This document shows positions 41,975 through 64,000 of a DNA stretch of 64,000 nt, piece by piece. Made by a program: the position numbers and the translations under genes. Each line of letters begins with the position of its first letter. Position 1 is the stretch's first letter. Under the pieces are notes generated by a model, which was given only the letters and a program-made list of their open reading frames with translations, was not told where the DNA came from and did no database searches. This DNA comes from Candidatus Cloacimonadales bacterium (GTDB lineage: Bacteria; Cloacimonadota; Cloacimonadia; Cloacimonadales; JAIOQZ01), in NCBI GenBank assembly GCA_963665815.1, contig OY762463.1, positions 768,001-832,000 of the forward strand. The letters run 5' to 3'.

Positions 41975-42790
41975 TTATGTTAATAGTGATCCATTTTCAG
42001 CAAGATAATCAACAATAATAAGATTATCATATTTAGCAGCAACATGTAAAGCATTAAGAAAATCCTTATTTTTAATGTTTACATCCGCTTTATTTTTTAT
42101 CAGAAGACGCACAATATCCAAATGATCGTTACGGGCAGCTTCATGTAAGGGGGTGTTTCCGTACTTATTAATTGCGTTAATGTTAGCACCTTTAGTAATA
42201 AGGTATTCAACAATTTCTTTGTGTCCGTTTCTGGCAGAAACATGCAAAGGCGTAGAGTGATCTGCCGTCTGAGGAGAATTCATGACGAGGTCATTATCTT
42301 CATCCACAAGTGATTTCACGATTTCAAGATAACCGTTAAGTGAAGATTTATGCAATGCATAGTCTTTATCGTAGATGGTTTTTGCCTTATGAGCACCCTT
42401 ATTTACTAAATATTCTACAATTTCAGTGTAACCTGCTACAAGAGCTTCATACAATGGATTCTTACCGTAAGAACTTTCAGCATTGATGTTTGCTCCGTTA
42501 CTTATAAGGTATTCAACTATTTCAGAGTTCCCTCTTCTGATAGCTTCGTGCAATGCAGTTAAACCATCATGTTCATTCTTTGCATTGACATCTGCCCCAT
42601 TTTCAACCAGAAACTTAATCACATCTAATTGTCCATGATATGCGGCAACCGGTAAGGCTTTTTCACCATTTTCAGATTGAGTATTAATATTCACACCACT
42701 TTTAAGTAGCTCTTTCATTCTTTCGATATTTCCGCTTATAATTGAGGAAAAGAATTTTCTTGTTAACATTTTATCTCCAATGACTGTCAA
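41975..42790 (-). CDS. Ankyrin-repeat protein
   Basis: Repeated TPLHxAAxxGHxEIVxYLIxxGANINA. Confidence 0.92.
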   Translation of the reverse strand: MTVIGDKMLTRKFFSSIISGNIERMKELLKSGVNINTQSENGEKALPVAAYHGQLDVIKFLVENGADVNAKNEHDGLTALHEAIRRGNSEIVEYLISNGANINAESSYGKNPLYEALVAGYTEIVEYLVNKGAHKAKTIYDKDYALHKSSLNGYLEIVKSLVDEDNDLVMNSPQTADHSTPLHVSARNGHKEIVEYLITKGANINAINKYGNTPLHEAARNDHLDIVRLLIKNKADVNIKNKDFLNALHVAAKYDNLIIVDYLAENGSLLT

Positions 42791-42796
42791 ACAATA

Positions 42797-42994
42797 TTAA
42801 ATCTTATCTTTCAGCTTTAACATTAAATTTTTCTTAGCCTTTTTGATTGTAATTCCGACGCCTGTAATTGTAATAAACTCAGGTTGATTATTGGTTTGCA
42901 TATCTCTTTTTGAAAAATCTTCTTTAGCCAACAGAGCAACCACATAATAAACACCATTAATTAATTTAGGTTTAAAGAACTTTCTTATGTACAT
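42797..42994 (-). CDS. Small hypothetical protein
   Basis: AAGGAG RBS, 65 aa, ends 6 bp before the ankyrin ORF. Confidence 0.5.
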   Translation of the reverse strand: MYIRKFFKPKLINGVYYVVALLAKEDFSKRDMQTNNQPEFITITGVGITIKKAKKNLMLKLKDKI

Positions 42995-43213
42995 TTCTTT
43001 CTCCTTGTGCTTTTGAAAATAATATATTCATTTTTTGGGAAAAAGTAAACATTTAAAAATTAACTACACTCAGTAATTATTTACCATGAAAAGCAATTAT
43101 TAGTTTTTTCACAGAAATAAATCAGAATACTTTTAATCAACTGCTTAGTTTGTAGCCTTGATTGATTAATCATTAGTTAACATCTTTTAGCATAAAGTAA
43201 AATGTATGTCAAC

Positions 43214-43240
43214 AAAAAAAAGACAGCTTTTCGCTGTCTT
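43214..43240 (-). terminator. Terminator at the end of the FG-GAP array
   Basis: AAGACAGC...GCTGTCTT with a poly-A flank; related hairpin near 48536-48565. Confidence 0.75.
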
Positions 43241-43264
43241 ATACTGTTTGATAGTATTAAATTA

Positions 43265-45790
43265 TTATTTCAAAAGTAACATTTTTTTATTTTGAACACC
43301 ATCTGCTGTTTTCAGTCTGTAGAAATACACGCCACTGGATACATCTGCTCCATTCAGGTCTTTACCGTTCCAGATTATAGAATGCTCACCTGCATCTACA
43401 TGATCATTCACCAGATTCTTAACTTTCTGTCCCTTAATGTTGTATATTGTGAGTTCTGCATCTCCAGCCTTCGCCATAGAATAACTGATCTTTGTTTCAG
43501 GATTGAAAGGATTGGGGTAGTTGGAAAGGAGATGTGTTTTGTATTGCGGAATTTGCTCGTCTGTGTTTACGGGATTGCCAAAATTATATTTAACTTTGAA
43601 CTTTCCATCAAAGTAATCTATATAAGCAAGGTCTTCACAACCATCTCCATTAAAATCAACCATTGAATAAGAATAGAAACTGTTACCATCCATATTTATA
43701 TTATAAGTGTTCCAGTCGCTGTTTCTTCCATTATTTACTATTGCTTTCAAAGTTGATGCAAGCATTCCTTGCCTGAAAACGATATCCATATCATTATCAT
43801 TATCAATATCCGAAAGTAGTATTCTTTCAAATGGAAAAGTCAGAATAGGCCGAAACCATCCTGCGGAGATACTATCTAGGCTTTCCTCAAAGTAATCTTC
43901 ACTATTATCTCCCCAAAGAACAGAGAATTCACCAGAATCCTGATAGTCTATTGCAAAAACAATATCGAGATATCCATCATTGTCAAAATCGTTACACTCA
44001 TATGTCACATTGGGTGCAGGGAAATTATATAAAGTACTTTCATGATTGAACCCATTCCCGTTATTATTGATGAAACACCCAATTTCTGCAATTCCAAAGT
44101 AGATTCTGACAAATAGTATATCGGGATAGTTGTCTCCATTAATATCAGCAAAAATTAATGGCAAGTTATCAATATAATTCAGTTCAAAATAATCTTCAAG
44201 AGAGAACTGTCCGTTTCGATTTAGATAAATCTTTAATGGAGAAAAGATACCCTGAACAAGAATATCTTGATCTCCATCACAGTCAATATCAATAAAATCA
44301 CATCTAATCTTAAACATAACTTCATCATTTAACGACAAATCTGGAATTCCGGAAGAGTTCATGTACAGACATAATCTGCCTGGAGTTCTATAAGGAAGCG
44401 ATTGAACTTCTTCTATAGTAATGAAATCTGCAATCTCATTGCCATCAATATCACCGATATCATAATCAACTATTAGATTCGTTCTTACAATATTGCTTAA
44501 TGTATCACTTAATGAGCTATTTTGATTAAATAGTGACATGCAATTATTTGTTACTAAAAGGTTAATGTCTTCTTCCTGCAATTTCTCAATGCACTTAACA
44601 GATCTGTAATCCTGCAAACAGAATGCTTCATTAGAATAACTACCATTTACATTATAGTGGACCAGAGGTGCTCCCCCTGTAAATGATGTGTTATGTGTAC
44701 GTCTATAAAATGAGATAACATCTTCATATCCATTGCCATCGAAATCTACAATATCTACAATAGAATTGCATTTAGGGAATGACGGATCAGGTATATAACT
44801 ATCTCCACTTAATCGGTATAGCATTGAATTAAAATTGAAATCGACGAAAATTTCAAATATGTTGTCAATATTGATATCTCTTACTATAACATTTTTAACT
44901 CCTCTTTGAGTTTCAATAATGTTATAAGTATATGTAAATAACTGATTGCTATCATTCAATATAACAGTCAAATGACTATCATCTCTATCAGAATATATTA
45001 GATCTATTAATCAGTCTTCGTTAAAATCAAAGAAACCAATAAAGTCATTACTTTCTGCATCAGGTAGAACTGGATGATAGTTAGTAAAACTCATTAGCGC
45101 AGAATCAAACTCCAGCCACCCAAAAGAATTACGAGCTTCTGTCATAACAAAAAGATCTTTGTCTCCATCTAAATCTACATCATATGCCGATTTATTACTG
45201 TATGCGATGTAATTAACTGTATCCTGGATTTGAACAATGTTGAATGTATCATTTACAGTTGCTCGCCATAGAAAAAGCATATAATTACCACTACAACAAA
45301 GATCTGTTACTCCATCATTATTAAAATCATCACCTACAGTAATTGCTTGCCCCATCAGATCAGAAAAGGAAATTACAGAATCTGTAAAATTTCCAAATCC
45401 ATTATTTTTGTATAGTTTCACCCATATATTTGTTGTATGAACAATATCATTATCACCATCATCATCAATATCAAAAATCGAAATGTTTCTCATTGAAGTT
45501 AAATAGTCCCCAATAATGTTCTCTTCACCTAAAATACCATTATTATTTTTGAACCAGACAAGTTGATGGCTTTGAGTGGAATAAGTGACTAAATCCTTTA
45601 AACCATCCCCATCAATGTCTCCAAAAATAGATTCACTACCCATTATTTTGGGCACAACAGATGAATAATCAATCGAACTTTGAAAATAAGGATCCGAAAA
45701 GCACTCAGGGATTATAATTAGTAGAAATGCAATAGACAGAAATAGTTTTAACTTATTGTATCCACATGTATTTATGATACTAATTTCCAT
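43265..45790 (-). pseudogene. FG-GAP/VCBS repeat protein with CTD, interrupted by one in-frame TGA (45011-45013)
   Basis: ORFs 45011-45790 and 43265-44971 are in the same frame; read-through gives FDFNED*LIDLIYSDRDDSHLTVILND. Confidence 0.8.
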
Positions 45791-45831
45791 GTAAACTCCT
45801 TAATAATTTTGATAACTACTTCTTATATACA

Positions 45832-48279
45832 CTATTTAAGAAGTAACATTTTTCTATTTTGAACACCATCTGCTGTTTTCAGTCTGTAGAAATACACGCC
45901 ACTGGATACATCTGCTCCATTCTGGTCTTTACCGTTCCAGATTATAGAATGTTCTCCTGCTTCGACATGATCGTTCACCAGAGTTTTTACTTTCTGCCCT
46001 TTTATGTTATAGATTGTAAGCTCTGCATTGCCGGTCTTTGCCATAGAGAAACCGATCTTTGTTTCAGGATTGAAAGGATTGGGATAGTTGGAAAGAAGAG
46101 TTGTCTTATAATGCGAGATTAGTTGGTCATTACAACCCAACAAAGACTCATTATAGATAAGATTGAGCTTACCGGAAAGCCTGTCTACATAGACAATATC
46201 AACTAAATCATCACTATTAAAGTCCACGCAAACAGCACTTACCATGCCTTCTTCTTCAATTAGAGATATTTGATTCCAGGACTCATCAGCACCTCGGTTC
46301 TCATATATAGTGATAGATCCTCGAGTGTCACTATTATATCCTCTACCGACATATAACAGATCTTTATCTCCATCATTATCAAAATCTACAACTGAAGAAT
46401 TCGAAAAGAAAAAATCATTATCACCAATAACCTGTTCCTCGCTGTTCATGAAGTTATAATTAGAATTTCCGGTGAAAATGCAAATAGTATTATTGCTGTT
46501 TACTCCATATACTATTAAATCTTTGTAGCCATCATTATCCACGTCTTCTAGAAGATAATAATTTATCGGTGAATCTCCGATAGCACTATGTTGTGTAAAA
46601 GTGAAGTCTCCATTTCCGTCCATATTGACTAGTTCTCCTGTATCTTTACAATATAGAATATCCGGCACACCATCATTATTTAAGTCATCTATTGTCATTT
46701 TTCTCCAATAATCCTGAAGTGTTTCATCGGCTAAGAAGTTAAAGATTCCTTCGTCGTTCTCATAGAATCTTATTACACCTCTTGAGAAGTCGTAAATATC
46801 CATATCTCCATCTGCATCAAAATCAGAAAATCCCCAACTAAGTCCTCCCTGATCTGCTAAAGATAAATGCTGGTATGGTTGTTGTCCATCATATGTAAGA
46901 TGCAAGAAACGTCCTATTGGATCATCATTCATTCTTGCATAAAAGATATAGTCAAGTTGTCCATTTGAATTCACATCCACACAATCAAATCCGGACAAGT
47001 CTCTGCAACATAGCACGGTGCTCAGAGAAACACCCATATCATCATTAAACCTCATCTCACCTAACACATTGCGATTACAGTATGAAATCAAAGTTTCACC
47101 GGCAACATCACTGAGCTTTAGACCATGAACGTCTATGAGGGAATTTACTTCAATGTTTTCTCTGGAGAACTGCCCATTATTATTAAGATGAACACAAAAA
47201 ATATCATCGGCAATTTCAGTTACAATCTCAGGGTAATTATCATCATTGCAGTCCCTGATCCATATATGCAAGGCATGCTCCATGTTTTGGGTAATTAGTT
47301 GATAACTTGTATCTGTTTTCATGAATATATAAATTCTATCATTCCGGTTACTATGTAGAACAAAATCATCCAGATTATCATCATTTAAGTCAGTCTTTAA
47401 AACACTTGTTAAAAGATCAAAGAAGTACCCCGCAACAAGTGTACTATCAGAGAAGCTCTGATTAATATCATTTTCATAAACTATTACACAACTGAGATCA
47501 CTGTTCCAATGAAGAATATCTGGCAAATCATCATCATTATAGTTTATTAGAATAAACAAATCGTGTTCAGTAATATTAACTGGTAGTGTATGCCTTACAA
47601 AATTAACAATTAACGGATCGAACTCAAACCAGACAGCAACACTGTCGGTATAGTCGTATCCCAGAATATCGTCATATCCATCATTGTTTAAATCTGCAAT
47701 GAAATCATATTTCTGACTGCTTTTGTTAAATGATGTATGCTGATTCAGAATTACTGCAAATGAATCAGTAACAGTCGATCTCCATATTAATGCAGAACCT
47801 GAATTACCTGCAGTATAAATATCCATAATACCATCAAGGTTGAAATCATTTACTACAAGTAATTCTCCATTCATCAGTTGCGAATCAATAGTTATTGAAT
47901 TGTTTACATTGAACTGTCCGTTTCCATCATTAAAATAAATATTTATGTTTTGATCTAGTTCTGTTGAAACTACCAGATCAAGTGCAGCATCATTATTCAT
48001 ATCAAAGCAATCAAGAGATAAAATAGATGTCAGCTGCAAATCCATACGATGTTCAGAATCAAAAACCCCATCAATATCAGAATCTTCAACCCAATAAATA
48101 CCATCCAGATCAAAATCTACAACATCAATAACACTGTCATTATTGATATCTACTTCTAAGTTATTACCTTCTTTATAGTTGCTGTTACTATTGTAAATTT
48201 CTAAGGGTTCACTGAAACTAATAGCCCCCAATAAACACCAGATTGACATCATTATTATAGAAACCAGTTTAACTTGCAT
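45832..48279 (-). CDS. Secreted FG-GAP/VCBS repeat protein with CTD
   Basis: Start MQVK after GGAGG; many DxNxDGxxD repeats; CTD. Confidence 0.88.
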
Positions 48280-48584
48280 TTTTCCTCCAAAATACATATT
48301 GCCTTAAGAAAATATTACATTGCTTATCAGTTTTTAAAAATTATAAGAAAAAATAGTTAGAAACATGCAATTTATAAGTAATTGCAATTTTGATTGAAAG
48401 AATATGAATATATGATTTCACAACCTATACTTATAACAACTTTTAAGCCTTGTAACCTCCGCTTATATGTATCTCTGGATTAAAAAAAAATGAAAACTAA
48501 ACCGACAATTCACACGCATATCTTAATCTGTCAATAAAAAAGACAGCCGAAGCTGCCTTTTTTTTAGTTGACTTGATTAATACA

Positions 48585-51134
48585 TTATTTCAAAAGTAAC
48601 ATTTTTTTATTTTGAACACCATCTGCTGTTTTCAGTCTGTAGAAATACACGCCACTGGATACATCTGCTCCATTCAGGTCTTTACCGTTCCAGATTATAG
48701 AATGCTCACCTGCATCTACATGATCATTCACCAGATTCTTAACTTTCTGTCCCTTTATGTTGTAGATTGTGAGTTCTGCATCTCCAGCCTTCGCCATAGA
48801 ATAACTGATCTTTGTTTCAGGATTGAATGGATTGGGGTAGTTAGCGTTTAAGACATTACTGAAGTCAGAAGTTTCATCTTCTCGATTTGATATATGTACT
48901 GGCTCTACTTCTATACTGCAAATATCATTAGTTCTATAATCCATAAATATGAACTCATTCAGATTGTCTTCATCCATACCAGCAATTCCTACTTTCAAAG
49001 CGCAATAATCTTCAGGAATATCAATTGTGCATGGATACCATGAATCATTGTTATTCTGAAGAATAACCAGTCCTTCTGGATTCATTACGGAATGAACAAT
49101 TAGATCCTTGTCTCCGTCAAAATCAATATCTTCTACCTTCACATATCTGCCTTCAAACTCTAAACTATTATACTCTATATTGTCAGTATATATGATTTCA
49201 CCTGATTGATTTACCATAGAGCTGTCATTAATACCATAATGAATAGCAACATTACTACCGTTTGCCATATAGCTTGAATATATGATAAAATCATCCTTGG
49301 AATCCATGTTTAAATCATCTACTACAACCTCATCAAAACTGACTGATGGTGTCAGTAAAACATTGAAATCTCCAAAATTCTGATTTCCATCATTAAGAGA
49401 ATATACAATCTGGCCTGTATTGTAACTCACCACTATAATATCCTTATATCCATCATTATTAACATCCGAGACATTAACTGAGCTAATTCTAATAATATCA
49501 TGATCACAAACTACAGATATATCTCTAATACTCCTTCTATCGATCTGCTGAGTATTATCTAAACGAGTTGATGAACAATGCAATGTCATCCTGTGAAAAC
49601 CTTTTTCGAATAGAATGTAATCATTAATTGAGTCAGAATCAATATCCTCAACATATATCCCCGGATACCCCCCGTATGAATCGTAAACATCCGGACGTAT
49701 TGTTGAAGACTGGTCCAGACAATAGTAAAAATAGTTCATATCAGATGTATGATTCTGAATTTTCTTAAGTACCATTATTTCATAAGCGTTGTCACTATCA
49801 AAATTATTAACTGCTGAGCAAGTCGTAATTCCTCTTGGAGTATCAATAAAAAAAGGACTCTGAATTCCATTATCACCGCATTCTAAAGATCCAAAGTAAA
49901 GACTTTTTAGAAACAGTTCCATTGTTCCGTTGTCATCATAATCAATATAACTTACTTCAGCATTTCGATTTATTCCCCTAACAATACCAGTGTTCAGATT
50001 AGTACTTAGATTTTGACCATACACAAGATAATCTAAACCATTATAACAATATACTAAGTCTTGCTTTCCATCTCCATCAATATCGCATAAACTTGTGTTA
50101 AAATTTATCTGATCGCTTTGTGATTCTACATGTAGCCTTCCATTTTCAAAGTCAAGTATCTCAATACTGAACTTATTGGTAATAATTGTTTCTGTTTCAT
50201 CATCATCATCAATGTTGCCCTGTATAATTATACCTTCAGGGTCGAAGACACAACTGTTTGTTACAGAAGTATATGATGTAAGGAAATTATCCTGCAAATT
50301 GCTGAGTGTATCTGCTTCATTAACTCTAACCTCAAAGTTGTTGTTTGTATCAAAGAAAATCATATCTGAAAATGAGCCTGCTCCCGGTTCTGCCATAATC
50401 AGTTTTGAGAACATTGGAAAATAGAAGTTGAATGTAATAATATTATCATATAAACACAATGCACTATTGTTCAACATCCAGATACACTCCAAAGAGTCTG
50501 TTTCTGAATTAAACTTATAAGCAAGAATATCAACATCAGAGTCATTTTCAAAATCACTGAATATTTTCTCGTAACTATTATAAAAAGCCATATCGAAGTC
50601 AGAAGTCAAACAATGAGTATCGAAGTCATTATTTAAAAAATTTCTCTTGAAGTATGAGTTTTCCCCCATTACCAGAATCTCTGAAACACCATCGCCATCC
50701 AGATCTGCAACTCTGAACTCCTCACTTTGATTAACAACATTAAAAATATTTTGACCTGAGAGATGCTGGTATGTTGAATCTCCATAGAATATTCTTCCAT
50801 GGCCACTGTTAATGCAGAAAAAGTCATTGAAATTGTCTCCATTAAAGTCAGCAACGTAATCAATATCATAGCTATCAATGTAGTTTGTACTGAAACCCAA
50901 CGGGATCAAACCATTAAAATCGGAATTATCATTTCTTATCCAGAAAAGCTCTCGACTTGAACGTTTCTGAGTAATAATATCGTCATCTCCATCCATATCA
51001 AGATCAATAAAAATTGAGTTTTCTACTCTGAAATCATCATATAGTGACTTCAGAACAATTGGTTCATTATATGTAAATTCTCCAGATAGAACTGCAATAA
51101 CTAACCATAGGTAACAAGCAGCAGCATACTTCAT
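48585..51134 (-). CDS. Secreted FG-GAP/VCBS repeat protein with CTD
   Basis: Start MKYAAA after GAGGAGG; DxDxDGxxD repeats; CTD. Confidence 0.88.
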
Positions 51135-51240
51135 AATTCCTCCTCTTATACTACTATAGAATATTGATTCCCCAATCTGTTCCATCATAAATATCTTCCT
51201 GTTTTGCCATGAACTCAAAAAAATTACGATGCATATCAAG

Positions 51241-51290
51241 TTTGAGAGCTTTGCTGATTAATCATATATTGACAGAGCAAAGCTCTCAAA
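51241..51290 (-). other. Conserved post-stop hairpin (GAGAGCTT...AAGCTCTC family)
   Basis: Perfect 15-bp stem TTTGAGAGCTTTGCT/AGCAAAGCTCTCAAA; relatives at 56365-56410, 58994-59039, 61576-61625. Confidence 0.8.
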
Positions 51291-51294
51291 GTCA

Positions 51295-53763: not shown

Positions 53764-53814
53764 TATTTCCTCATTATTTATTTGTTCCAAGTGTTATTAC
53801 TATTCATTTTAGAG

Positions 53815-56265
53815 TTACTTCAAAAGTAACATTTTCCTGTTTTGAACACCATCTGCTGTTTTCAGTCTGTAGAAATACACACCACTTGAAACATCAGAGT
53901 CTTTTTCATCTTTACCATTCCAGATTATAGAATGCTCTCCGGATTCGACATGATCGTTTATCAGAGTTTTTACTTTCTGTCCCTTTATGTTATATATTGT
54001 CAGATTTGCACTGCCGGCTTTCGCCATTGAATATTTGATATTTGTTTCCGGATTGAACGGATTTGGGTAGTTAGCGTAGAGTTGTGTATTACAGAACGAC
54101 AAATCATGTTTTCTTATTCCCGTATGTATGTTGTTATATAATATGTACATTTCCCCTGTCACATTATCAAGGTAAACAATATCATCAGTTCCATTCTGAT
54201 CAACATCACCTGAAGACATTCTCACTATGTTATCAGGTATATGAGCAAGAGTCACTATTTCCCAGTTTGTGCTATCAACCGGATTTAGAGCAACATCAAT
54301 CAAACTTTCCCAAACGATTTCACCATAATGAAAATTGTTAACAGCAATATCTTTAACACCATCATTATTGAAATCTCCAAGTTCAATACTATATATATAT
54401 CCTGGGAAAAATAATGTATCAGGTACCTGACTGAAGCTGAAAGAAGAGTTACTACCCTCTCCATAACGAATGAGGAGATTATTTCTGGAAGAATCATCCT
54501 TGACAATCATATCAATGCGTCCATCCAGGTTAAGATCGTCAAAGGCAATGATATCAGAACTGATATCTGCTATCCATTCTGATAATCCAAAGCTGAATAA
54601 GCCATTATTCTTTATCCAGAAAAGTTGATCATTACTTCCAGTATATACAATATCCCTGATGCCGTCATTATCCATATCAACATATTTGCATGTATTTCTG
54701 TAAAATAGATTATCTGTATTCACAACCACAGAGTCTACTAAAGTTCCATTTTCATTGCTGAATAAATGGGTATTCTCATTGCGTATATCAATTAAGTCCA
54801 TATCTCCGTCAAAATCAAGATCAACAAACATTAATTCACGTCCACCACGATAATTACTATCATCAAGGATGATGTTCTGACCATTCAAAGACAAAATCAG
54901 TGCTTTGGTATCATCGTCGGTATAAGTTGCATAAGCGCAGTCAAGTTGTCCATCCCCATCTACATCTGCAAAAGCAGCGTCACTTACCGTAGCTATCCCT
55001 GGAGTAAGAAAATTTGAGTGAACAAACATACTGTCTTCTAACATGAGATAATTAAGATTGTAACGATGTCTGCACCCCAAAAAAAACCGATCATCATGAA
55101 TTATTAATGATATCTCATCCGTATTTCTAAATGAACTCACTCTTATGTTTTCATTATCGATATTTCCATTGTTGTTCTTATATACTCTGAAAATATACGT
55201 GTCAGGTTCGGTAACAATTTCTTTGTACTCATCTCCATCAAAATCTTTGAACCAGAGGTTACCCCCTGTACCATACAAATTGCAATCAAAAATAAAACCG
55301 GTTCCATTATTTACATATATGCCTGCCTTCTCTCCATAGTATAAGATAATTAAATCATCACGGGCATCCTGATTCAGGTCATATTTGTAGATATCATAGA
55401 CTGAATCCAGATTGTTAAACAGAATTGAAGAGTTTGAGAAGCTCTGATTTTCATCATTTTCGAACATCTGAATTGCATTCAAACTATCTGAATAAACCAG
55501 GAGGTCTGTTAAACCGTCTGAATTGACATCAATTGGAGTAATACCGGAATTTTCCCCCATGAATCTAATCGGAAGTTGATGATATATAAAACTATTTGTA
55601 TTGGGATCGAACTCACGCCAGTTATAAGGTTCGTTATATCCTGCAAAACCAACAACATCCATATAACTATCATTATTTAAATCAGCAAGAGAACAATATC
55701 TGTCATATTTATCCTGAATTGTTCCATATGGTAATGCAATTGAATTGAAAGGTGCCGTTGTCTGAGTTCTGGAAAAGTACTTAACTGAATCACCATCACA
55801 GGTATAAATATCCTGAATTCCGTCCTGATTAAAATCATGAATGAGAATCATTCCAAAATTTCCAATAGAAGTTTCCAGTGCATCCATATTATTCATGCTG
55901 AAGTCACCTGTTCCATTTCCGTAGAATATATACAAGTTATGATCCCCATCGAATTTAGCAATGATTTCTTCAGTTCCATCATTATTCATATCAACATAAT
56001 CCAACGAATAAAAATTGTTTGTAAAATGACCAACATAATGTTTGGTGTCCGGGATGGAATCTCCATCAGTGTCCTCAGCCCAGTATGGACCATCCTGATC
56101 ATAAAATATAACATCGAGATTGCCATCCGAGTTCACATCATCAACAAATCCGTCCTGATCAAGGAAGTTTTGATCACTATTGGCAATTTCAACCGGACCG
56201 GTAAAATCAACTGCCCAAATATTGCAAACCATTAACAAAACAATTGATACAAGATGATGTCTCAT
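53815..56265 (-). CDS. Secreted FG-GAP/VCBS repeat protein with CTD
   Basis: Start MRHH after GGAGG; repeats; CTD; closest paralog 56420-58894. Confidence 0.88.
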
Positions 56266-59200
56266 TTTTCCTCCGTTCTGTATCAATATCCCAACATACT
56301 GATTTAATATTATATTTAAACTTTCATTCAAATGAAAGATTGCACTACATAGACGTATCAATTCGAGAGCTTCACCGGAACTCTCTGTCTGCTAATCAGG
56401 TAAAGCTCTCAATTATTATTTATTTCAAAAGTAACATTTTTTTATTTTGAACACCATCTGCTGTTTTCAGTCTGTAGAAATACACACCACTGGAAACATC
56501 AGAGTCTTTTTCATCTTTACCATTCCAGATTATAGAATGTTCTCCTGCTTCGACATGATCGTTAACCAGAGTTTTTACTCTCTGTCCTTTAATATTATAA
56601 ATTGTCAGCTCCGCATTACCTGAATTTGCCATTGAATAGCTGATTTTTGTTTCCGGGTTGAACGGATTCGGGTAGTTGCCAAGGAGTTGTGTATTACAGA
56701 ACGATAAATCATTATTTTCTTTGATTCCGATAAGAGGATTGTTATAGAGTACTTTAATCTCGCCTGTGCTATTATCTACATAAGCAATATCATCAGTACC
56801 GTTTTCATCAAGATCTGCACCAGCCATTCTAATTTCGGTATCTGATATATTCAGCAAACTGACAACTTCCCAATTATTATCAATTACTGGATTTATCGCA
56901 ACACTGACACTGCTTGAATGTCCATGATTATCATGATAGAAGCAATTTACTGCAATATCATCAACACCGTCATTATTATAGTCTCCCAGCTCAAGTTCAG
57001 TTATATCTCCCGGTAGTAACAATGTGTCTGCAGATTGACTGAAACTGAAATTATAGTCATTACCTTCTCCGTAACGTACAAGCAAATGGTTTGGAGCAAA
57101 GTCATCTCTTACAAGCATATCAATGCGTCCATCCAGATTTAGATCAGTAAAAGCAATTATATCTGAACTAATTGTTGTTAGCAGCTCTGATTCTCCAAAG
57201 TTGAAAGAACCATTATTCTTGATCCAGAACAGTTGATTATTGCTTCCTGTATAAACAATATCCCTGATGCCATCATTATCCATATCAATATATTTACTTT
57301 TACTTCCCTCAAAAACAAATCCTAAATCATCTGTATCGATAACAACAGAATCAATTAATGTTCCATTTATATAATTGTAAAAATGAGTATATTCAATGCC
57401 GAAATCAACTAAATCACTATCTCCATCATCATCCAGATCCGCAAACATTAATCCACGTCCACCACGATAATTACTATTCTCGAGAATCATATTCTGACCA
57501 TTCAGAGATAGTATCAGGTTTTTAGTATAAGAATTATCATAGAAATTAATTGCGTAAACATAATCAAGCTGTCCATTGCCGTCTATGTCAGCACAATCTG
57601 ATTTATTTATTTCACCAACTGAAACTGATGGTGCTTGAATATTTGACAGATCTGCAATACCATCATCCAACATCAGATAGTTAAAATTATAAAAGTGGCT
57701 GCAAGATATAAAGGTGAGGTTATCCGATTCTCTTATTGATAACCTATCTGTGTTTCTGAATGAACTGATTCTTACATCATCATTACTGAAACTACCATTG
57801 CTATTATTGAAGACTTTGAAAACATCATTTTCAGATTCTGTAACAATCTCTTTATAACCATCTCCATCTAAATCTTTGAACCAGAGGTAATCTCCTGTTC
57901 CATAAATATCTGTGATATAATTGAATCCATTCCCATTGTTTAGATATATGTTTGCTATTTTCCAATCAGTTTGGATTACAAGATCTTCTAGTCCATCTGA
58001 ATTTAAATCACATTTATAGATATTTCTGACATTTCCAACATTATTTATCAAAATTGATGAATTTGAAAAACTTTGGGTTGCATCATTTTCATATAGTACA
58101 CAAGCGTTAAGACTATCTTCATAAACCAAAAGATCAATTAAACCGTCAGTATTTCCATCAATTGGAGTGATTCCGCTACTTACTCCCCTAAACCAGAGAG
58201 GAAGATAGTGATGTATGAAACTGTTTGTCGCAGGATCAAACTCTTGCCATGAATAAGGCTCGTCATAACTCCAAAAACCGACAATGTCCATGTAGCCATC
58301 GTTATTTATGTCTGCAAGGCAGCTTGATTTGACATACCTATGCTGACTCGTTCCATTCTGAAGATCAACTAAAATGAATTGAGACCAGGCTTGAGTTTTG
58401 TAAAAGTATTTGCATGATCCGCCTGAAGTATAAATATCCTGTATTCCATCATGATTAAAATCATGAATAAGAATAAGCCCATCTTTATAAACACCACTAT
58501 CCAGAATATCCATGTCATTTAGGCTGAAGTTCCCTGTACCGTGACCATAAAATATATAGAGATTAGTATCAGCTTCAAAATTAACAATAATATCTTTCTC
58601 CCCATCATTATTCATATCAATATAATCTAATGAAGACAACATTTGAGTAAAGTTACCTACATGATGTTTTGTATCAGGAAAACCATCCCCATTAGTATCT
58701 TCAGCCCAGTATGGGCCATTATAATCATCATAAAAAATCACATCAGGACTGCCATCTGAATTTACATCATCAATAAATCCGTTCTGATCAAAGTAGTTTT
58801 GACCACTGTTTGCTATCTCTACCGGAACATTAAAATCCACAGCTCCAATATTAGAAAGCACTACTAAAATAATTACTACAAAGTTAAGTCTCATTTTTCC
58901 TCCGTTTTGTATCAATATCCCAACATACTGATTTAATATTATATTTAAACTTTCATTCAAATGAAAGATTGCACTACATAGACGTATCAATTCGAGAGCT
59001 TCACCGGAACTCTCTGTCTGCTAATCAGGTAAAGCTCTCAATTATTATTTATTTCAAAAGTAACATTTTTTTATTTTGAACACCATCTGCTGTTTTCAGT
59101 CTGTAGAAATACACACCACTGGAAACATCAGAGTCTTTTTCATCTTTACCATTCCAGATTATAGAATGTTCTCCTGCTTCGACATGATCGTTAACCAGAG

Positions 59201-59291
59201 TTTTTACTCTCTGTCCTTTAATATTATAAATTGTCAGCTCCGCATTACCTGAATTTGCCATTGAATAGCTGATTTTTGTTTCCGGGTTGAA
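56259..59291. repeat. 404-bp near-identical direct repeat (56259-56662 and 58888-59291)
   Basis: Offset 2629; one mismatch seen (56278 C vs T); covers a CTD, the intergenic hairpin, the RBS and the next start codon. Confidence 0.9.
56420..58894 (-). CDS. Secreted FG-GAP/VCBS repeat protein with CTD
   Basis: Start MRLNF after GGAGG; repeats; CTD. Confidence 0.88.
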   Translation of the reverse strand: MRLNFVVIILVVLSNIGAVDFNVPVEIANSGQNYFDQNGFIDDVNSDGSPDVIFYDDYNGPYWAEDTNGDGFPDTKHHVGNFTQMLSSLDYIDMNNDGEKDIIVNFEADTNLYIFYGHGTGNFSLNDMDILDSGVYKDGLILIHDFNHDGIQDIYTSGGSCKYFYKTQAWSQFILVDLQNGTSQHRYVKSSCLADINNDGYMDIVGFWSYDEPYSWQEFDPATNSFIHHYLPLWFRGVSSGITPIDGNTDGLIDLLVYEDSLNACVLYENDATQSFSNSSILINNVGNVRNIYKCDLNSDGLEDLVIQTDWKIANIYLNNGNGFNYITDIYGTGDYLWFKDLDGDGYKEIVTESENDVFKVFNNSNGSFSNDDVRISSFRNTDRLSIRESDNLTFISCSHFYNFNYLMLDDGIADLSNIQAPSVSVGEINKSDCADIDGNGQLDYVYAINFYDNSYTKNLILSLNGQNMILENSNYRGGRGLMFADLDDDGDSDLVDFGIEYTHFYNYINGTLIDSVVIDTDDLGFVFEGSKSKYIDMDNDGIRDIVYTGSNNQLFWIKNNGSFNFGESELLTTISSDIIAFTDLNLDGRIDMLVRDDFAPNHLLVRYGEGNDYNFSFSQSADTLLLPGDITELELGDYNNDGVDDIAVNCFYHDNHGHSSSVSVAINPVIDNNWEVVSLLNISDTEIRMAGADLDENGTDDIAYVDNSTGEIKVLYNNPLIGIKENNDLSFCNTQLLGNYPNPFNPETKISYSMANSGNAELTIYNIKGQRVKTLVNDHVEAGEHSIIWNGKDEKDSDVSSGVYFYRLKTADGVQNKKMLLLK

Positions 59292-61532
59292 TGGGTTAGG
59301 GTAGTTGCAGAGAAGTTGTGTTCTATATTCAGGAAAATCAGTGTCTTCATTAGGAGTGATTTCGGTAGTATTGATATGAGCTTTTATCTTCTTTGAGCTA
59401 TAATCAATAAACATAATATCCTGTAATCCATCCTCATTCACATCAGCTGCACAATGTAATATTTGATTATTGAAAATGTAGGAAGAACTGTCTAAAAGCA
59501 TAGTATTTATTAGATTCACGCTTCCATCGTTCTCTGCAACTTCCATTTTAACAGTCTGAAAATCATAATAATGAAGCTGAGTATATAAAAAATCATTATC
59601 ATTATCATTATCTAAATCAACGAAATCAAAACTTCTATAATAGCCACTTGGACCAACAATAATGGGAACTGTTGCGAAACCATTTGATAATCCAAGATAA
59701 GCCTTAGGAGCTGAACCAGTATTGAAATCCCAGGTTACAATATCTTTTACACCATCACCATTTGCGTCCCTATATTCAAAATCACTGAAAACCGTACTCA
59801 ATATTGAGACCGGATCATCAAAGCTAAATCCACCCAGATTATATGCTAAATTCAGTGAACCAGTTACATTAGTATAGAGTAAATCGCAAAAACCATCTTC
59901 ATTAATATCAGAAAAATCAAATCTTCTGACATAAGATGGTCCGTCAACATGGTATAGATTTGAGAATGTACAATTGTTGTTTTCATATACTTTAATTCTG
60001 AAGACATCATCATCAACAGAATAGCATGTAATATCAAAATCCCCATCGTTATCTACATCGTTGAACTCAGCACATGCAATTAGGTTTTCAGATGCGAACG
60101 AAACAATATCCTGCATTCTGGTTCCATTAAGATAAAAAATTATTTTGTCCTTTAAAAAGCCTTGCTCAACATATTCCTCAACAAAAATATAATCTAATAC
60201 TCCATTGTTATCAATATCTTCACAATCAAAATCATTGAAGAATCTGATATCTCTTACTGGTCGATCTTGAATTATGATCTCACCATCAACCAGCTCTGCT
60301 TCAGCAACATAATAATATCCTGCAATTACATATCTGTCCGTACCGGAAACATTCTTTTTAAAGAAGGATTGAACGTATTTCAAAGGAAGTATTTTTGAAT
60401 TATCAAAACTGAATGATCCGTTGCTATTCAGATAAATCATATAGTCCCCACCAAGATCACACGTCATATCAAGTTCACCGTCATCATTCATGTCTTCAAT
60501 CCAGAAATTAGTTACATCAGAAGTTATTTCTGATGATATTTGAAGTCCGGATGTGCTGTTTAGATAAACTTGCATTTTGGCATTCCCTGATTCCTTACAA
60601 CTTAGTTCAAAATCAGGCAGACCATCATTATTAACATCATAGGACTCCATTTGATATATTCTATCAATATTATCAGCAAAAGGTGTCAAATTTGTGAAGC
60701 CATTTGTCTGATTATTCTGAACAATCCTGATAGTTTGAGCATTTCTGTCATAGACAATAACATCTGCATACCCGTCATTATTCATGTCGCTTACTATAAA
60801 TGAGCTGTAATCATTACAGTTGCATATAAAATGAGAAGTGTTAAAAGAGTTAGTACCTGGATCAAACTCATACCAGACAATTTGCCCCGTATCTGTCTTA
60901 AGTCCAATATAATCCATATAACCATCATTATTAACATCTGCAATGTTTGAATTATCATTATATACACCATTTCTTAAACATAACATATTATCGTTTAGCT
61001 GATTAACTCTGAATGTATCATTCACAGATGGTCGAGTGAGATACACAGATTTACTGTTATCAGAGATTATTATATCCTGAATTCCATCAAGATTGAAATC
61101 ATATATGGTCATAGCAAAGCCAAAGTAATGCGATGTATGATAATCTTCTCTGGAAAAAATTCCAGTACCGTCGTTTGTGTAAATATAAAGTAGATCTCTC
61201 GCATCATCTGCTGTAACTAAATCTTTGAAACCATCATTATTCATATCTACATAGTATAATGTCCCAGAAACAGTTTGGTCTATTAGATGCGTCATGTCAA
61301 TACAATCGTCAAAGACACCATTATTGTTTGAGTCCTCATGCCAGAGAACACCATTACTATGCTTTGGAATGAAATCATCATCACCATCATTATCAATGTC
61401 ATCAACAATAAATTGATTCTTGTCAACACAACCATATTCCTGATTGGATATTGTAACCGGAGCAGCAAACTCTATAGCTGTAATACTACTAATCAACAAT
61501 ACAAGAATTCCTATACAAAAAATCTTTTTCAT
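59049..61532 (-). CDS. Secreted FG-GAP/VCBS repeat protein with CTD
   Basis: Start MKKIF after GGAGG; repeats; CTD; closest paralog 61633-64000. Confidence 0.88.
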   Translation of the reverse strand: MKKIFCIGILVLLISSITAIEFAAPVTISNQEYGCVDKNQFIVDDIDNDGDDDFIPKHSNGVLWHEDSNNNGVFDDCIDMTHLIDQTVSGTLYYVDMNNDGFKDLVTADDARDLLYIYTNDGTGIFSREDYHTSHYFGFAMTIYDFNLDGIQDIIISDNSKSVYLTRPSVNDTFRVNQLNDNMLCLRNGVYNDNSNIADVNNDGYMDYIGLKTDTGQIVWYEFDPGTNSFNTSHFICNCNDYSSFIVSDMNNDGYADVIVYDRNAQTIRIVQNNQTNGFTNLTPFADNIDRIYQMESYDVNNDGLPDFELSCKESGNAKMQVYLNSTSGLQISSEITSDVTNFWIEDMNDDGELDMTCDLGGDYMIYLNSNGSFSFDNSKILPLKYVQSFFKKNVSGTDRYVIAGYYYVAEAELVDGEIIIQDRPVRDIRFFNDFDCEDIDNNGVLDYIFVEEYVEQGFLKDKIIFYLNGTRMQDIVSFASENLIACAEFNDVDNDGDFDITCYSVDDDVFRIKVYENNNCTFSNLYHVDGPSYVRRFDFSDINEDGFCDLLYTNVTGSLNLAYNLGGFSFDDPVSILSTVFSDFEYRDANGDGVKDIVTWDFNTGSAPKAYLGLSNGFATVPIIVGPSGYYRSFDFVDLDNDNDNDFLYTQLHYYDFQTVKMEVAENDGSVNLINTMLLDSSSYIFNNQILHCAADVNEDGLQDIMFIDYSSKKIKAHINTTEITPNEDTDFPEYRTQLLCNYPNPFNPETKISYSMANSGNAELTIYNIKGQRVKTLVNDHVEAGEHSIIWNGKDEKDSDVSSGVYFYRLKTADGVQNKKMLLLK

Positions 61533-61632
61533 CTTTTCCTCCAACAAAAAGATCGTGGCACCCCAACGTGCCTAATTGAGAGCTTTGCAACAATTCACAC
61601 CTTATGAATTATGCAAAGCCCCCAAATATTTA

Positions 61633-63999
61633 TTATTTCAAAAGCAACATTTTTCTATTTTGAACACCTTCTGCTGTTTTCAGTCTGTAGAAATATACAC
61701 CACTGGAAACATCAGAATCTTTGTCATCCTTACCATTCCAGATTATAGAATGCTCTCCGGATTCGACATGATCATTCACCAGAGTTTTTACTCTCTGTCC
61801 TTTAATATTATAAATTGTTAGCTCCGCATTACCCGTTTCTGCAAGTGAATAGTTGATCTTAGTTTCCGGATTGAACGGATTGGGATAGTTGCCATAAAGC
61901 TTTGTTGAATACTCTGGTATATCGGTATCTGAATTGGAAGTTACTATTGTGTTATTGATATATGTTTTTATTTTTTTTGTACTGTAATCAATGTACATAA
62001 TATCCTGCAAACCATCTTCGTTTACATCAGCAGTGCAATGCAGTATTTGGCTATTTATCATATAAAAACAGCTATCCAGGAGTACAGAATTAGTAAGGTT
62101 CATTGTTCCATCATTCTCTAAAATCTCCATTTCCAGATATTCATAACTATTATTATGCAAGTGTGTTAATAGAACATCGTTATCATTGTCGTTATCAAAA
62201 TCTACAAAATCAAGACTTCTATACCGACATTCAGAACCAATTGTTACAGGTGTTGATGAAAAATTACTACTTGATGTACCTAAGTATACTTCCGGAGCTA
62301 CATAATTCTCAAAATTCCAGGTTACAATGTCTTTCACTCCATCTCCGTTGGCATCTTTATGTTCAAAATCACTGAAAACCGTACTCAATAGTGAGATCGG
62401 AGCATCAAAGCTCATTCCTCCCAGATTATATGCCACGTTTAATGAGCTATTTACATCTGTATAAAGTAAATCACAGAAACCATCACCATTAACATCAGCA
62501 AAATCATGCCTTCTAATTGAAGACTGAGCTACTTCATCATACTGATTAAAGAAAACACAATTACAGTTTTCATATACTTTTACACTGCTTACACCATCAT
62601 CAACTCCATAAAATGTAATATCATAGTTTCCGTCATTATCTACATCATTGAATTCAGCATCTTTAATAGAATTCCAGGAAGCAGATGATACTAAATCCTG
62701 CATTCTGGTTCCATTAATATAGAGTACTATTTTTTGTTTAGTCAATCCCTGCACAGAATAACTCTCAACAAAGATGTAATCCAAAACACCATTGTTGTCA
62801 ATATCTTCACAATCAAAATCATTGAAGAATCTGATATCCCTTACAGGTTTATCTTCAATAATCATCTCACCATTAATCAATTCAGCTTCTACAATATAAT
62901 AATATCCTGCAATGATATATCTGTCTGAGCCCAAAACATTTTTTTTAGTAATAGATTGAACTTGCTCTAATGGAATTATTTTTGAATTATCGAAACTAAA
63001 TATACCGTTGTCATTCAGATAAATCATAAAATCATTTCCAATATCACATAACATATCAAGTTCACCATCTTCATTAATGTCTTCAATCCAGAAGTAACGA
63101 AAGTCAGATTGAATTTCTGAGGATAATTGAAGCCCGGAAGTACTGTTCAGGTATATACTCTTCTTTGTGTTCGAGGATTCACCATAACTTACTGCAATAT
63201 CGAGCAGACCATCGTTGTTAAAATCATAAGATTCAATCTGTGAAAGATAATCAATACTATAAACAAAAGGAGTCTGGCTTGAAAAACCATTAGCCTGATT
63301 ATTCAAAACCACTCTAAGAGAGTAAGCATTATTGTCATAAATGATAATATCGGAATTCCCATCATTATTAATATCACTAAAAATGAATGTACCATAATCA
63401 GGATTATTACAGATAGAGTGAGAATTTGTAAAAGTATTAACATTCGGATCAAATTCATACCAGACAACTTGATTTGTATATATGTCATAACCGATATAAT
63501 CCATATATCCATCATTGTTAACATCAATAATGTTTGAGTTGTCGTTATATAAACCATTTTTGAGATACAACACATGGTCGTTTAAATGATTAACTTGAAA
63601 TGTATCATTAACAGATGATCTTGTAAGATAGACAGATTTACTGTCACTGGAAATAAATAAATCCTGAACTCCATCAATATTAAAATCATAAATGTTTATT
63701 GCAAAAGCCATATACATAGATGTACAATATGCTTCTTTCGAAAAAAATCCTGTTCCGTTATTAGTAAATATATACAATGAGTCATGGCTTTGACCAGTAG
63801 TGACAATATCTTTAACACCATCATTATTCATGTCCACATAGTATAATCCCGAATGACAAATTCTATCTATAGAATGAGGCATATCTATACAACCATCATA
63901 AACACTATTACCATTAATGTCTTCATACCAGTAAACATTATTACCAAACTTTGGAATAAAGTCATCATCACCATCATTATCAACGTCATCAACGATAAA
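61633..63999 (-). CDS. Secreted FG-GAP/VCBS repeat protein with CTD; 5' end beyond window
   Basis: Frame open to the window edge (FIVDDVDNDGDDDFIPK...), aligning with the N-terminus of 59049-61532. Confidence 0.88.
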   Translation of the reverse strand, partial: FIVDDVDNDGDDDFIPKFGNNVYWYEDINGNSVYDGCIDMPHSIDRICHSGLYYVDMNNDGVKDIVTTGQSHDSLYIFTNNGTGFFSKEAYCTSMYMAFAINIYDFNIDGVQDLFISSDSKSVYLTRSSVNDTFQVNHLNDHVLYLKNGLYNDNSNIIDVNNDGYMDYIGYDIYTNQVVWYEFDPNVNTFTNSHSICNNPDYGTFIFSDINNDGNSDIIIYDNNAYSLRVVLNNQANGFSSQTPFVYSIDYLSQIESYDFNNDGLLDIAVSYGESSNTKKSIYLNSTSGLQLSSEIQSDFRYFWIEDINEDGELDMLCDIGNDFMIYLNDNGIFSFDNSKIIPLEQVQSITKKNVLGSDRYIIAGYYYIVEAELINGEMIIEDKPVRDIRFFNDFDCEDIDNNGVLDYIFVESYSVQGLTKQKIVLYINGTRMQDLVSSASWNSIKDAEFNDVDNDGNYDITFYGVDDGVSSVKVYENCNCVFFNQYDEVAQSSIRRHDFADVNGDGFCDLLYTDVNSSLNVAYNLGGMSFDAPISLLSTVFSDFEHKDANGDGVKDIVTWNFENYVAPEVYLGTSSSNFSSTPVTIGSECRYRSLDFVDFDNDNDNDVLLTHLHNNSYEYLEMEILENDGTMNLTNSVLLDSCFYMINSQILHCTADVNEDGLQDIMYIDYSTKKIKTYINNTIVTSNSDTDIPEYSTKLYGNYPNPFNPETKINYSLAETGNAELTIYNIKGQRVKTLVNDHVESGEHSIIWNGKDDKDSDVSSGVYFYRLKTAEGVQNRKMLLLK

Positions 64000-64000
64000 A

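Follow-up and report, generated by a model that had tools for sequence, protein, structure and literature searches.

The stretch of DNA analysed here (the window; 64,000 nt, positions 768,001-832,000 of the forward strand of contig OY762463.1 of Candidatus Cloacimonadales bacterium, GCA_963665815.1) raises the question of how neighbouring genes with highly divergent bodies (passengers) come to carry C-terminal domains (CTDs) that are in part almost identical in DNA. The answer that we regard as highly probable is that these genes form a tandem array of paralogs, the passengers of which diverged long ago, while purifying selection and repeated gene conversion have together kept the tails alike. 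The array is co-oriented on the minus strand, with the units in direct orientation and spaced by approximately 2.6 kb. At least eight FG-GAP proteins were expected from the preliminary description, and this number is not only reached but exceeded, because eight units lie at 43265-64000 of the window and two more past its end. The genes g1 (43265..45790) and g2 (45832..48297) are assigned as FG-GAP propeller genes encoding cargo of the type IX secretion system (T9SS) from ORF calls and Pfam and NCBIfam matches, and are followed by the cargo genes g3 (48585..51239), g4 (51295..53790), g5 (53815..56361), g6 (56420..58990), g7 (59049..61547) and g8 (61633..64000), all on the minus strand. The last of these is truncated at the window end, the whole gene reaching window-equivalent position 64134. 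The remaining two, g9 and g10, are minus-strand ORFs of the genome at window-equivalent positions 64220-66685 and 66734-69136. The start of g3 is likely the methionine of MKYAAAC near 51134, and the true start of g5 is probably that of MRHHLV near 56268. The genes g2, g3 and g5-g7 are uninterrupted, and g1 and g4 each contain an in-frame stop.

FG-GAP_3 (PF13517) matches all ten ORF pieces of the window with 41-134 bits (cut-off 26.9). All eight tail-bearing pieces match TIGR04183 (Por_Secre_tail) with 37.0-44.9 bits against a curated cut-off of 23, and PF18962 with 30.6-36.5 bits against a cut-off of 27, and these sorting-domain matches stop 3-4 residues short of the C-terminus. A hydrophobic, signal-peptide-like N-terminus is present in all ten units, as judged by eye. 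These sequence matches show that the tail of the array is a T9SS type A C-terminal sorting domain, i.e. a secretion signal, and that each unit consists of a putative Sec signal peptide, FG-GAP repeats and this domain. The proteins would then be exported by the type IX route and displayed at the surface, most likely as cell-surface binding proteins. The genome encodes the T9SS sortase PorU (532.6 bits, cut-off 420) and the translocon protein SprA (pieces totalling 461 bits, cut-off 200), and its best match to PorV scores 126.7 bits, under the cut-off of 250. The AlphaFold model of g7 (pLDDT 82, pTM 0.71) has a helix at residues 2-17, is all-beta over residues 41-719 with two beta-propellers, and ends in a CTD of seven strands (residues 739-825, pLDDT ~82-87) that forms a beta-sandwich. 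The two-propeller fold is proposed for g7 only, because g7 is the one copy modelled and because the number of DxDxDG-like calcium-loop motifs varies widely (6-14 per unit in the ten array units, g10 having 6, and 4-14 in the five units of a congener, h5 having 4). The best 50 Foldseek matches of this model are mostly DDB1 and SF3b-core entries, the top ones with E values of ~1e-13 and TM-scores of 0.33-0.37. PorZ of Porphyromonas gingivalis (5m11), in which a T9SS CTD sandwich likewise comes after two beta-propellers, ranks fifth with a TM-score of 0.20-0.22, and the NCBIfam PorZ model matches two of the ten pieces, in the tail region only, with 19.8-20.3 bits against a cut-off of 260. PorZ and the g7 model have an architecture in common, which does not establish orthology.

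The passengers are as divergent as had been described, with protein identities of 15-37% across the array (15-20% for g3, the most divergent one), except for the pairs g5/g6 (62%) and g7/g8 (67%). Passenger pS is 0.61-0.77 in 45 of 45 pairs, which is near saturation. The tandem, co-oriented arrangement of ~2.6-kb units and the two passenger pairs at 62-67% would be consistent with a scenario in which the units were duplicated in tandem very recently and the passengers then changed extremely fast under diversifying selection, the tails being unchanged remnants. However, selection at the protein level cannot yield saturation at synonymous sites, passenger pN/pS is far under 1 (0.22/0.61 for g5/g6 and 0.13/0.46 for g6 and its congener counterpart h1), and passenger orthologs are found in the congener, so that such a recent origin is extremely unlikely. 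The divergence of the passengers is more probably old and took place under moderate purifying selection.

Among g1-g9, the CTDs are 82-100% identical in protein and 80.4-98.8% identical in nucleotide sequence (85 codons; median 85.9%). The earlier statement that they are almost identical in DNA therefore holds for certain pairs only, CTD pS reaching 0.5-0.6 between the two tail types. The pairs g1/g3, g6/g7 and g8/g9 have CTD pS of 0.06, 0.06 and 0.14 respectively, beside passenger pS of 0.70-0.72. The CTDs of g1 and g3, which had been described as equal, differ at 3 of 258 nt. Most CTD pairs have not undergone recent conversion. The tail types of g1-g4 and g6-g9 differ from each other with a pS of 0.47-0.61, which is near the passenger level, and this result indicates that purifying selection is in large part responsible for their protein identity of 82-91%. 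The congener likewise keeps the tail type, and the final 21 codons show low synonymous difference also in four of five non-array ortholog pairs. These three observations could be accounted for by purifying selection alone, if narrow recognition by the T9SS kept the tails alike without any exchange of DNA. However, the g10 CTD has drifted to only ~53% identity to the others, even though its passenger belongs to the same family, indicating that constraint alone does not keep the CTDs at 82-100%. Among the array paralogs, CTD pN is at most ~0.2 of passenger pN (0.00-0.09 vs 0.19-0.60), whereas it is 0.4-1.0 of passenger pN in ortholog pairs (0.09 vs 0.13 for g6/h1, 0.13 vs 0.32 for g10/h5 and 0.03 vs 0.03 for gY/hY).

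Selection alone is also difficult to reconcile with the exact identical runs in the array, which are 384, 217, 172+62, 92 and 80 bp long. The 384-bp tract (56279..56662, minus strand) spans the g6 CTD with its stop codon, the hairpin in the spacer, and the leader and beginning of g5, and is identical to 58908..59291 (minus strand), which spans the g7 CTD through the start of g6; the equality noted before for the CTDs of the genes at 56420 and 59049 is thus confirmed. The 217-bp tract (61528..61744, minus strand) takes in the 3' half of a CTD together with the spacer and the beginning of the following gene, and is identical to the g9/g8 junction at window-equivalent positions 64115-64331. These two tracts run on across the spacer as far as the neighbouring gene, with 105-141 nt of non-coding DNA beyond the stop codon, which selection alone cannot produce. 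The g1 CTD (43264..43507, minus strand) shares with the g3 CTD a run of 172 bp (43264-43435 = 48584-48755) and one of 62 bp (43446-43507 = 48766-48827). The g4 CTD had been described as a mosaic, and this is the case: a 92-bp run (51437..51528, minus strand) is identical to g3 48727-48818 and represents the 5' donor part of the tail, which then continues as the DEK type (pairwise permutation p = 2e-4).

Statistical tests detect recombination among the tails. The run-length permutation test (5000 permutations per test) gives p = 2e-4 to 4e-4 in four of 36 pairs, values that remain significant when corrected for the 36 tests, and a PHI-like test on the CTDs gives p = 2e-4. Separate trees of CTDs and passengers also conflict, as had been noted for the tail and passenger relationships. 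When AU tests are performed with the CTD data, three of five passenger-based groupings are rejected at p < 0.05, among them (g7,g8) with a p-AU of 2.4e-4 and (g9,h2) with 0.0014; the passenger-based groupings (g6,h1) and (g5,g6) are not rejected (p = 0.077 and 0.11 respectively). With the passenger data, (g6,g7) is rejected with a p-AU of 1.5e-5. The CTD tree itself is poorly resolved, 11 of its 15 inner branches being open. Selection alone leaves the mosaic runs, the PHI-like result and the tree conflict unexplained, cannot yield a CTD pS of 0.06 beside a passenger pS of 0.70-0.72, and is already contradicted for g1/g3, g6/g7, g8/g9 and g3/g4; as a full account it is very unlikely. The exact tracts, the mosaic tail and the tests together indicate that gene conversion has acted repeatedly on top of purifying selection.

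Identical copies may also arise when reads from paralogous tails are mis-assigned during assembly or polishing, and repeats of this kind favour polishing errors. Logan contigs from three runs show no differences to each passenger, and cover 43478-45884 of g1 and 51523-53866 of g4 with no differences. The three runs all derive from a single sample, from which the assembly itself was probably made, and the contigs break ~29 nt inside both ends of the 384-bp tract without bridging the exact repeats, which would be compatible with such an artefact. However, these independent k-mer contigs stop inside the tracts rather than continuing across them with differences, as would be expected of a k-mer graph at true repeats. 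In addition, the genome is closed as a single 3.96-Mb contig that contains no N, the borders of the tracts are sharp and set in divergent context, and similar blocks occur in many other places of the genome. There is therefore hardly any likelihood that the identity of the tails is an artefact.

Genome-wide, 51 of 172 CTD ORFs fall into 14 CTD clusters (>= 80% nucleotide identity), and some of the homogenised CTD blocks lie megabases apart. There are 37 CTD pairs with at least 90% nucleotide identity, only six of which belong to the ten-gene array, and in 32 of the 37 the passengers are less than 70% identical or without a match. This result shows that other cargo families of the genome undergo the same tail homogenisation. 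In the congener, five array genes are present against ten here, flanked on both sides by the same genes, which fits gain and loss of units. Copy-number variants at the level of strains are not seen. Its gene h1 is the ortholog of g6 by passenger but has another tail type, g6 bearing the tail of g7. The four array tails of the congener contain no near-identical pair (pS 0.31-0.65), so that recent conversion is not seen there.

The proposal that the constant CTD acts as a recombination platform is thus supported as far as conversion and the re-pairing of tails and passengers are concerned, and needs correction in that the constancy is partly due to purifying selection on the T9SS signal; much of it at the protein level must be so, because CTD pS reaches 0.6. 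The unit that is kept alike would be a junction module, which begins with the CTD and its stop codon, continues through a conserved hairpin in the spacer and the ribosome-binding site, and includes the first codons of the gene that follows. Two processes may act on this module together: purifying selection, directed at the secretion signal, and repeated gene conversion or unequal exchange of the RecA type between neighbours; the overwriting of tails would proceed regardless of the passenger. The blocks of perfect homology (60-380 bp) recur in direct orientation every ~2.6 kb and would be likely to serve as substrates for duplication and deletion of units, and tail homology may accordingly be the cause of the change in copy number.

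The spacers of the array are 24-287 nt long and ORF-free. An array-specific hairpin, GAGAGCTTT...AAGCTCTC (56365..56410, minus strand), is located directly 3' of the g6 stop, and comparison of the spacers reveals similar minus-strand copies at 51244-51287 (after g4), 58994-59039 (after g7) and 61578-61623 (after g8). A terminator-like hairpin with a T-run follows g1, the final gene of the array (43220..43240, minus strand). In the nine spacers, a ribosome-binding site of the GGAGG type is plain upstream of g4-g9, and is weaker or not evident for g1-g3. The conserved hairpin, and the combination of constant ends with variable bodies, would suit a dedicated variation system resembling polymorphic toxins or antigenic variation, in which the tail is a programmed switch site through which silent passengers come to be expressed. 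Two of the eight window units, in which an in-frame stop separates two ORFs, could pass for silent copies: g1 by a TGA at 45011-45013, which falls on the conserved Gly of a DxNxDG motif (ORFs 45011-45790, with the signal peptide, and 43265-44971, with the CTD), and g4 by a TAG at 52534-52536 (ORFs 52534-53790 and 51295-52491). However, these stops are single nonsense changes in otherwise full-length genes, and the signal-peptide-like N-terminus in all units and the plain GGAGG before g4-g9 also argue against silent cassettes. No recombinase, immunity-size ORF or promoterless orphan cassette is found within the array, and no toxin domain is found above cut-off in the window pieces, TcdB_toxin_midN reaching 15.8-22.6 bits against 24.8 in repeat regions. 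Polymorphic toxin loci such as Rhs and CDI join a constant part to variable parts and are shaped by recombination, but in this array the constant part is a C-terminal secretion signal, and the toxin tip, the immunity gene and the orphan cassette are lacking. The likeness to a polymorphic-toxin locus proposed earlier is therefore not supported, and a dedicated variation system is highly improbable. The array represents a case of real, yet fairly ordinary, gene conversion.

Gene conversion among outer-membrane paralogs with divergent middles and conserved ends for export or insertion is known for babA/babB of Helicobacter pylori. The conserved end of these dispersed genes is a beta-barrel, whereas that of the ten-gene tandem array is a sorting domain of the cleaved type that belongs to another secretion route. 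The T9SS cargo paralogs RgpA, Kgp and HagA of P. gingivalis have a conserved CTD and, according to the part of the source considered, owe their diversity to homologous recombination or gene conversion (PMC5266723). As described there, adhesin domains are shuffled between dispersed genes and strains, whereas here the tail and spacer are exchanged within one array. The KLIKK proteases of Tannerella forsythia are, in the sections consulted, clustered T9SS cargo with near-identical CTDs and differing passengers (PMC4404884; PMC11285876), the passengers being of disparate catalytic classes and paired with inhibitor genes (PMC9890683). Their origin has been proposed to be a fusion of conserved parts onto pre-existing protease genes, recombination being unmentioned in the consulted part of that paper and the word itself having no occurrence in its text (PMC4404884). 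As far as these excerpts go, both systems have a basic hydrophobic tail end (KLIKK in Tannerella and KMLLLK here) and an array that a close relative lacks or has in another form, the likeness drawn here being one of organisation. They differ in that all passengers here are homologous FG-GAP proteins without partner genes, and in that the array is from Cloacimonadota and the KLIKK proteases are from Bacteroidota. Conversion tracts, mosaic tails and statistical tests are documented for the present array.

The genome studied (G000) is a closed genome of 3.96 Mb with 36% GC, assembled as a single contig without N, in which the window corresponds to G000:C1:768001-832000. The minus strand from position 43265 to the window end carries eight gene units (g1-g8), each about 2.5-2.65 kb long. 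Two further units, g9 (64220-66685, minus strand) and g10 (66734-69136, minus strand), are read from the genome beyond the window in window-equivalent coordinates. Unrelated genes lie beyond g10, and a terminator-like hairpin is present after g1, the last unit of the array. FG-GAP_3 (PF13517) is matched in all 10 ORF pieces of the window, and the type A sorting domain of the type IX secretion system (T9SS; TIGR04183, PF18962) is detected above the curated cut-offs at the extreme C-terminus of all eight tail-bearing pieces. This C-terminal domain is termed CTD or tail, and the rest of the protein is termed passenger. Each of the 10 units contains 6-14 DxDxDG-like motifs. In two of them, g1 and g4, a single stop codon on the minus strand interrupts the gene and leaves two ORFs that are in frame with each other. 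The stop of g1 is TGA at 45011-45013, a position occupied in five paralogs by the Gly of a DxNxDG motif, and that of g4 is TAG at 52534-52536. Both sites show 0 differences in the contigs of three public runs (one sample). Decoding of TGA as an amino acid is unneeded, because TGA terminates four and TAG 61 of the 172 CTD ORFs of the genome, and because the internal stops of g1 and g4 are different codons.

The genome encodes PorU and SprA, both scoring above the cut-off, and PorV-like barrels scoring below it, and about 172 of its ORFs end in a T9SS type A tail. AlphaFold modelling covered g7 only. The g7 model, built from a 25-row alignment (pLDDT 82, pTM 0.71), is all-beta with a C-terminal seven-stranded sandwich. 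The top Foldseek matches of this model are mostly entries of DDB1, a multi-propeller protein, and of the SF3b core, and PorZ, a two-propeller T9SS protein, is found at rank 5 with a TM of 0.20-0.22. The DDB1-type matches are read as suggesting a propeller fold for g7. Full-length relatives of the passengers are found only in G000 and in a genome of the same genus (G001, the congener) among 31 related genomes, and a scan of the genome contigs for such relatives yields, apart from the congener, only distant FG-GAP proteins. A database search adds one further contig (383,511 bp), from a third genome, with the relatives P0003, P0006 and P0007; the remaining matches, from Bacteroidota among others, are generic FG-GAP/T9SS proteins with identities of 28% or less.

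The passengers share 15-37% protein identity, except for g5/g6 (62%) and g7/g8 (67%), and their proportion of synonymous differences (pS) is 0.61-0.77 in all 45 pairs. The CTDs of g1-g9 share 82-100% protein identity, and that of g10 shares about 53% with the other CTDs of the array. CTD pS is 0.06 for g1/g3 and g6/g7, 0.14 for g8/g9 and 0.47-0.61 between the g1-g4 and g6-g9 types. The preliminary description had stated that particular CTD pairs are equal, and these statements are borne out by the measured identities and exact tracts. Its claim that the CTDs are generally almost identical in DNA is too strong, because the nucleotide identity among g1-g9 over 85 codons is only 80.4-98.8%, with a median of 85.9%. 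When the g1 tail is compared with the genome by blastn, 67 matches are obtained, of which nine, all inside the array, show 81-100% identity over 257-258 nt; the longer matches outside the array do not exceed 78%, and a few short ones (29-47 nt) reach 81-97%.

Exact runs were determined by ungapped comparisons anchored on the stop codons. The longest is shared by g6 and g7 (384 bp, 56279-56662 = 58908-59291), followed by those of g8/g9 (217 bp), g1/g3 (172 and 62 bp), g3/g4 (92 bp), and g6/g9 and g7/g9 (80 bp). The g6/g7 and g8/g9 tracts continue beyond the stop codon for 141 and 105 nt, respectively, through the spacer to the start of the next gene, and therefore the exchanged unit is the junction composed of tail, spacer and leader. 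A run-length permutation over 36 pairs (75 polymorphic sites in a 258-nt alignment of the g1-g9 tails, 5000 shuffles of site order) gives p = 2e-4 for g3/g4, g6/g9 and g7/g9 and 4e-4 for g6/g7, and a PHI-like test on the same nine tails gives p = 2e-4. Thus, the proposal that the CTDs recombine is supported by the exact tracts and by both tests, and the finding on the array tails is real and statistically supported.

Separate trees of tails and passengers had been expected to conflict. In the passenger tree, g6 pairs with h1, g9 with h2, g10 with h5, and (g7,g8) with hX, where h1-h5 are the array units of the congener and hX is a further gene of it. The tail data reject (g7,g8) (p-AU 2.4e-4), (g9,h2) (0.0014) and (g5,g6,h1) (0.024), and the passenger data reject (g6,g7) (p-AU 1.5e-5). 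The expected conflict is therefore seen for these groupings, but not for (g6,h1) and (g5,g6), which the tail data do not reject by the AU test (0.077 and 0.11). The tail of g6 is that of g7, whereas h1, the ortholog of g6, has another tail type, which suggests that g6 was converted in the G000 lineage.

Likeness of the tails by constraint alone has to be weighed against exchange. Between G000 and the congener, flanking orthologs show pS of 0.53-0.79 and array tails pS of 0.31-0.65, the latter still encoding one protein type. The proportion of nonsynonymous differences (pN) in the tail amounts to 0.4-1.0 of that in the passenger for ortholog pairs, but to at most about 0.2 for array paralogs. 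Because this ratio is far lower in paralogs than in orthologs, constraint alone is insufficient to account for the likeness of paralogous tails. The tail of g10, itself a member of this family within the array, has drifted down to about 53% identity with the others. Selection also acts on the array tails besides exchange, and the CTD pattern is well explained if purifying selection is combined with gene conversion that recurs at the junctions of tail, spacer and leader in this T9SS cargo array.

The identity of the tails might also have arisen from assembly collapse. Logan contigs of three runs, which represent one sample that is probably the source of the assembly, show 0 differences to each passenger and do not bridge the exact repeats. 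They end about 29 nt within the ends of the exact tracts (e.g. 54043-56308 and 56633-58937), and these breaks are the behaviour of a k-mer graph at true repeats. Contig joints such as those from 56675 to 61868 and from 46090 to 56652 were rejected as deletion or copy-number variants; their sides are 20-23 letters long and located at shared tail k-mers. A further run labelled as the same species contains next to no words of the locus, and no independent sample with the locus was found.

The congener has the same flanks as G000: genes for a periplasmic binding protein and an ankyrin protein border one end of the array, and a deaminase gene borders the other end. The ankyrin-repeat gene (41975-42790) directly adjoins the array, and its position is conserved in the congener. 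Between these flanks the congener array contains only five units, compared with ten in G000, arranged in another order and with different content. The (g7,g8)-like gene of the congener is located elsewhere, and h2, the ortholog of g9, is paired with a leader of the g5/g6 type. These differences between the two species fit gain, loss and shuffling of units.

A hairpin with a stem of 12-14 bp (GAGAGCTTTGCA...TGCAAAGCTCTC) immediately follows the stop codon at the junctions of g4, g6, g7, g8, g9, h2, h3 and h4. In the window, these hairpins are located directly 3' of the stop codons at 51244-51287, 56365-56410, 58994-59039 and 61578-61623. A small second hairpin comes next at the junctions after g8, g9, h2, h3 and h4, and a GGAGG site and ATG are present downstream of the spacer hairpins. 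Two-sided change is observed in five of the 21 predicted pairs, and the G-U wobbles fit the sense strand. The exact hairpin pattern occurs at one site in the whole genome. A relaxed 7-mer search detects it after five array genes and otherwise gives only two unrelated chance matches among the 172 CTD genes, so that the hairpin is not a genome-wide repeat. A search of 42600-64000 against Rfam at E <= 1 gives three sub-threshold chance matches and assigns neither the spacer hairpin nor the region 3' of g1 to a family. A sigma-70 promoter scan gives 115 sites as compared with 110 in shuffled sequences, without excess, and is therefore uninformative on promoters in the spacers. We guess that the hairpin serves transcript processing or stability.

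The last 63 nt of the array genes (e.g. 43268-43330) are nearly invariant among 13 genes of two species, and the majority base differs between the species at one of these 63 positions as compared with 29 of the 192 preceding ones. The low synonymous divergence of the last 21 codons is weakened as an array-specific feature, because a weaker form is seen in four of five non-array ortholog pairs. It is conceivable, though we think it improbable, that the junction module (roughly the final 63 nt of the CTD, the array-specific spacer hairpin and the leader) is a cassette selected at the nucleic acid level and not a passive by-product. Such a cassette could control the processing or stability of a polycistronic transcript and, as an anchor of homology, could also allow the array to evolve as a surface repertoire. 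The non-coding DNA that separates g1 from the ankyrin gene (42965-43264) is 92% identical to its counterpart in the congener over 287 nt, as against the pS of 0.53-0.79 of the flanking ORFs. It has no Rfam match and might have a conserved regulatory role or encode a conserved RNA.

All 14,533 tail pairs of the genome show a median nucleotide identity of 53%, with a 99th percentile of 68%. Clustering at 80% or more nucleotide identity gives fourteen clusters that contain 51 of the 172 tails, a count that suggests frequent concerted evolution of sorting domains. In 32 of the 37 tail pairs with at least 90% identity, the passengers are less than 70% identical, partly alike or without match. Only six of the 37 belong to this array, which is the largest tandem example of this genome-wide tail homogenisation. 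The similarity between tails stops at about the stop codon in the remaining families, and extension into the spacer is seen only in this array.

The nearest described organisation is that of the KLIKK proteases of T. forsythia, T9SS cargo proteins whose clustered genes encode nearly identical CTDs (PMC4404884). A second parallel is the gingipain/HagA family of P. gingivalis, for which surface-protein diversity has been attributed to recombination and gene conversion (PMC5266723). The presence of T9SS in Cloacimonadota has been mentioned as possible (PMC11285876). The analogy to a polymorphic-toxin locus fails with respect to the toxin domain, immunity genes and orphan cassettes, and the array reveals no new kind of system. 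In a limited literature search, concerted evolution of T9SS sorting domains was found to be addressed only for P. gingivalis, without a general statement, and what was found on concerted evolution together with type IX secretion concerns machinery genes. It is conceivable, though again we think it improbable, that T9SS-bearing phyla in general show concerted evolution of sorting domains within their cargo families. The case presented here shows in detail that, in a surface-protein family of an uncultured phylum, the secretion signal is shared and exchanged as a module together with the adjoining spacer. Because the tail is exchangeable, likeness of T9SS cargo tails is no sign of a recent common origin of whole genes, and CTD and passenger are best handled apart when T9SS cargo is annotated by pipelines or placed in phylogenies.

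Outside the array, other tandem cargo pairs (G000:C1:3908142-3913800 and 853267-856907) have tails with 98.5-99.6% nucleotide identity, whereas their passengers are only 47-49% identical, and one of them contains a 476-bp block with 0 mismatches. A family of eight large cargo genes encoding 1344-2413 aa (G000 1273253, 1496200, 3134847, 3602300, 3627833, 3636162, 3647699 and 3690259), dispersed over megabases, shows 79-99% identity in tail DNA and 33-85% in the passengers, and represents tail homogenisation across distant loci. A lone FG-GAP member (G000:C1:513789-518130) shares 92% nucleotide identity in its tail with an unrelated neighbour of 585 aa. Its passenger differs from that of its ortholog on G001 C14 with a pS of only 0.19, as compared with 0.53-0.79 for the array flanks, which hints at a recent exchange between the two species.
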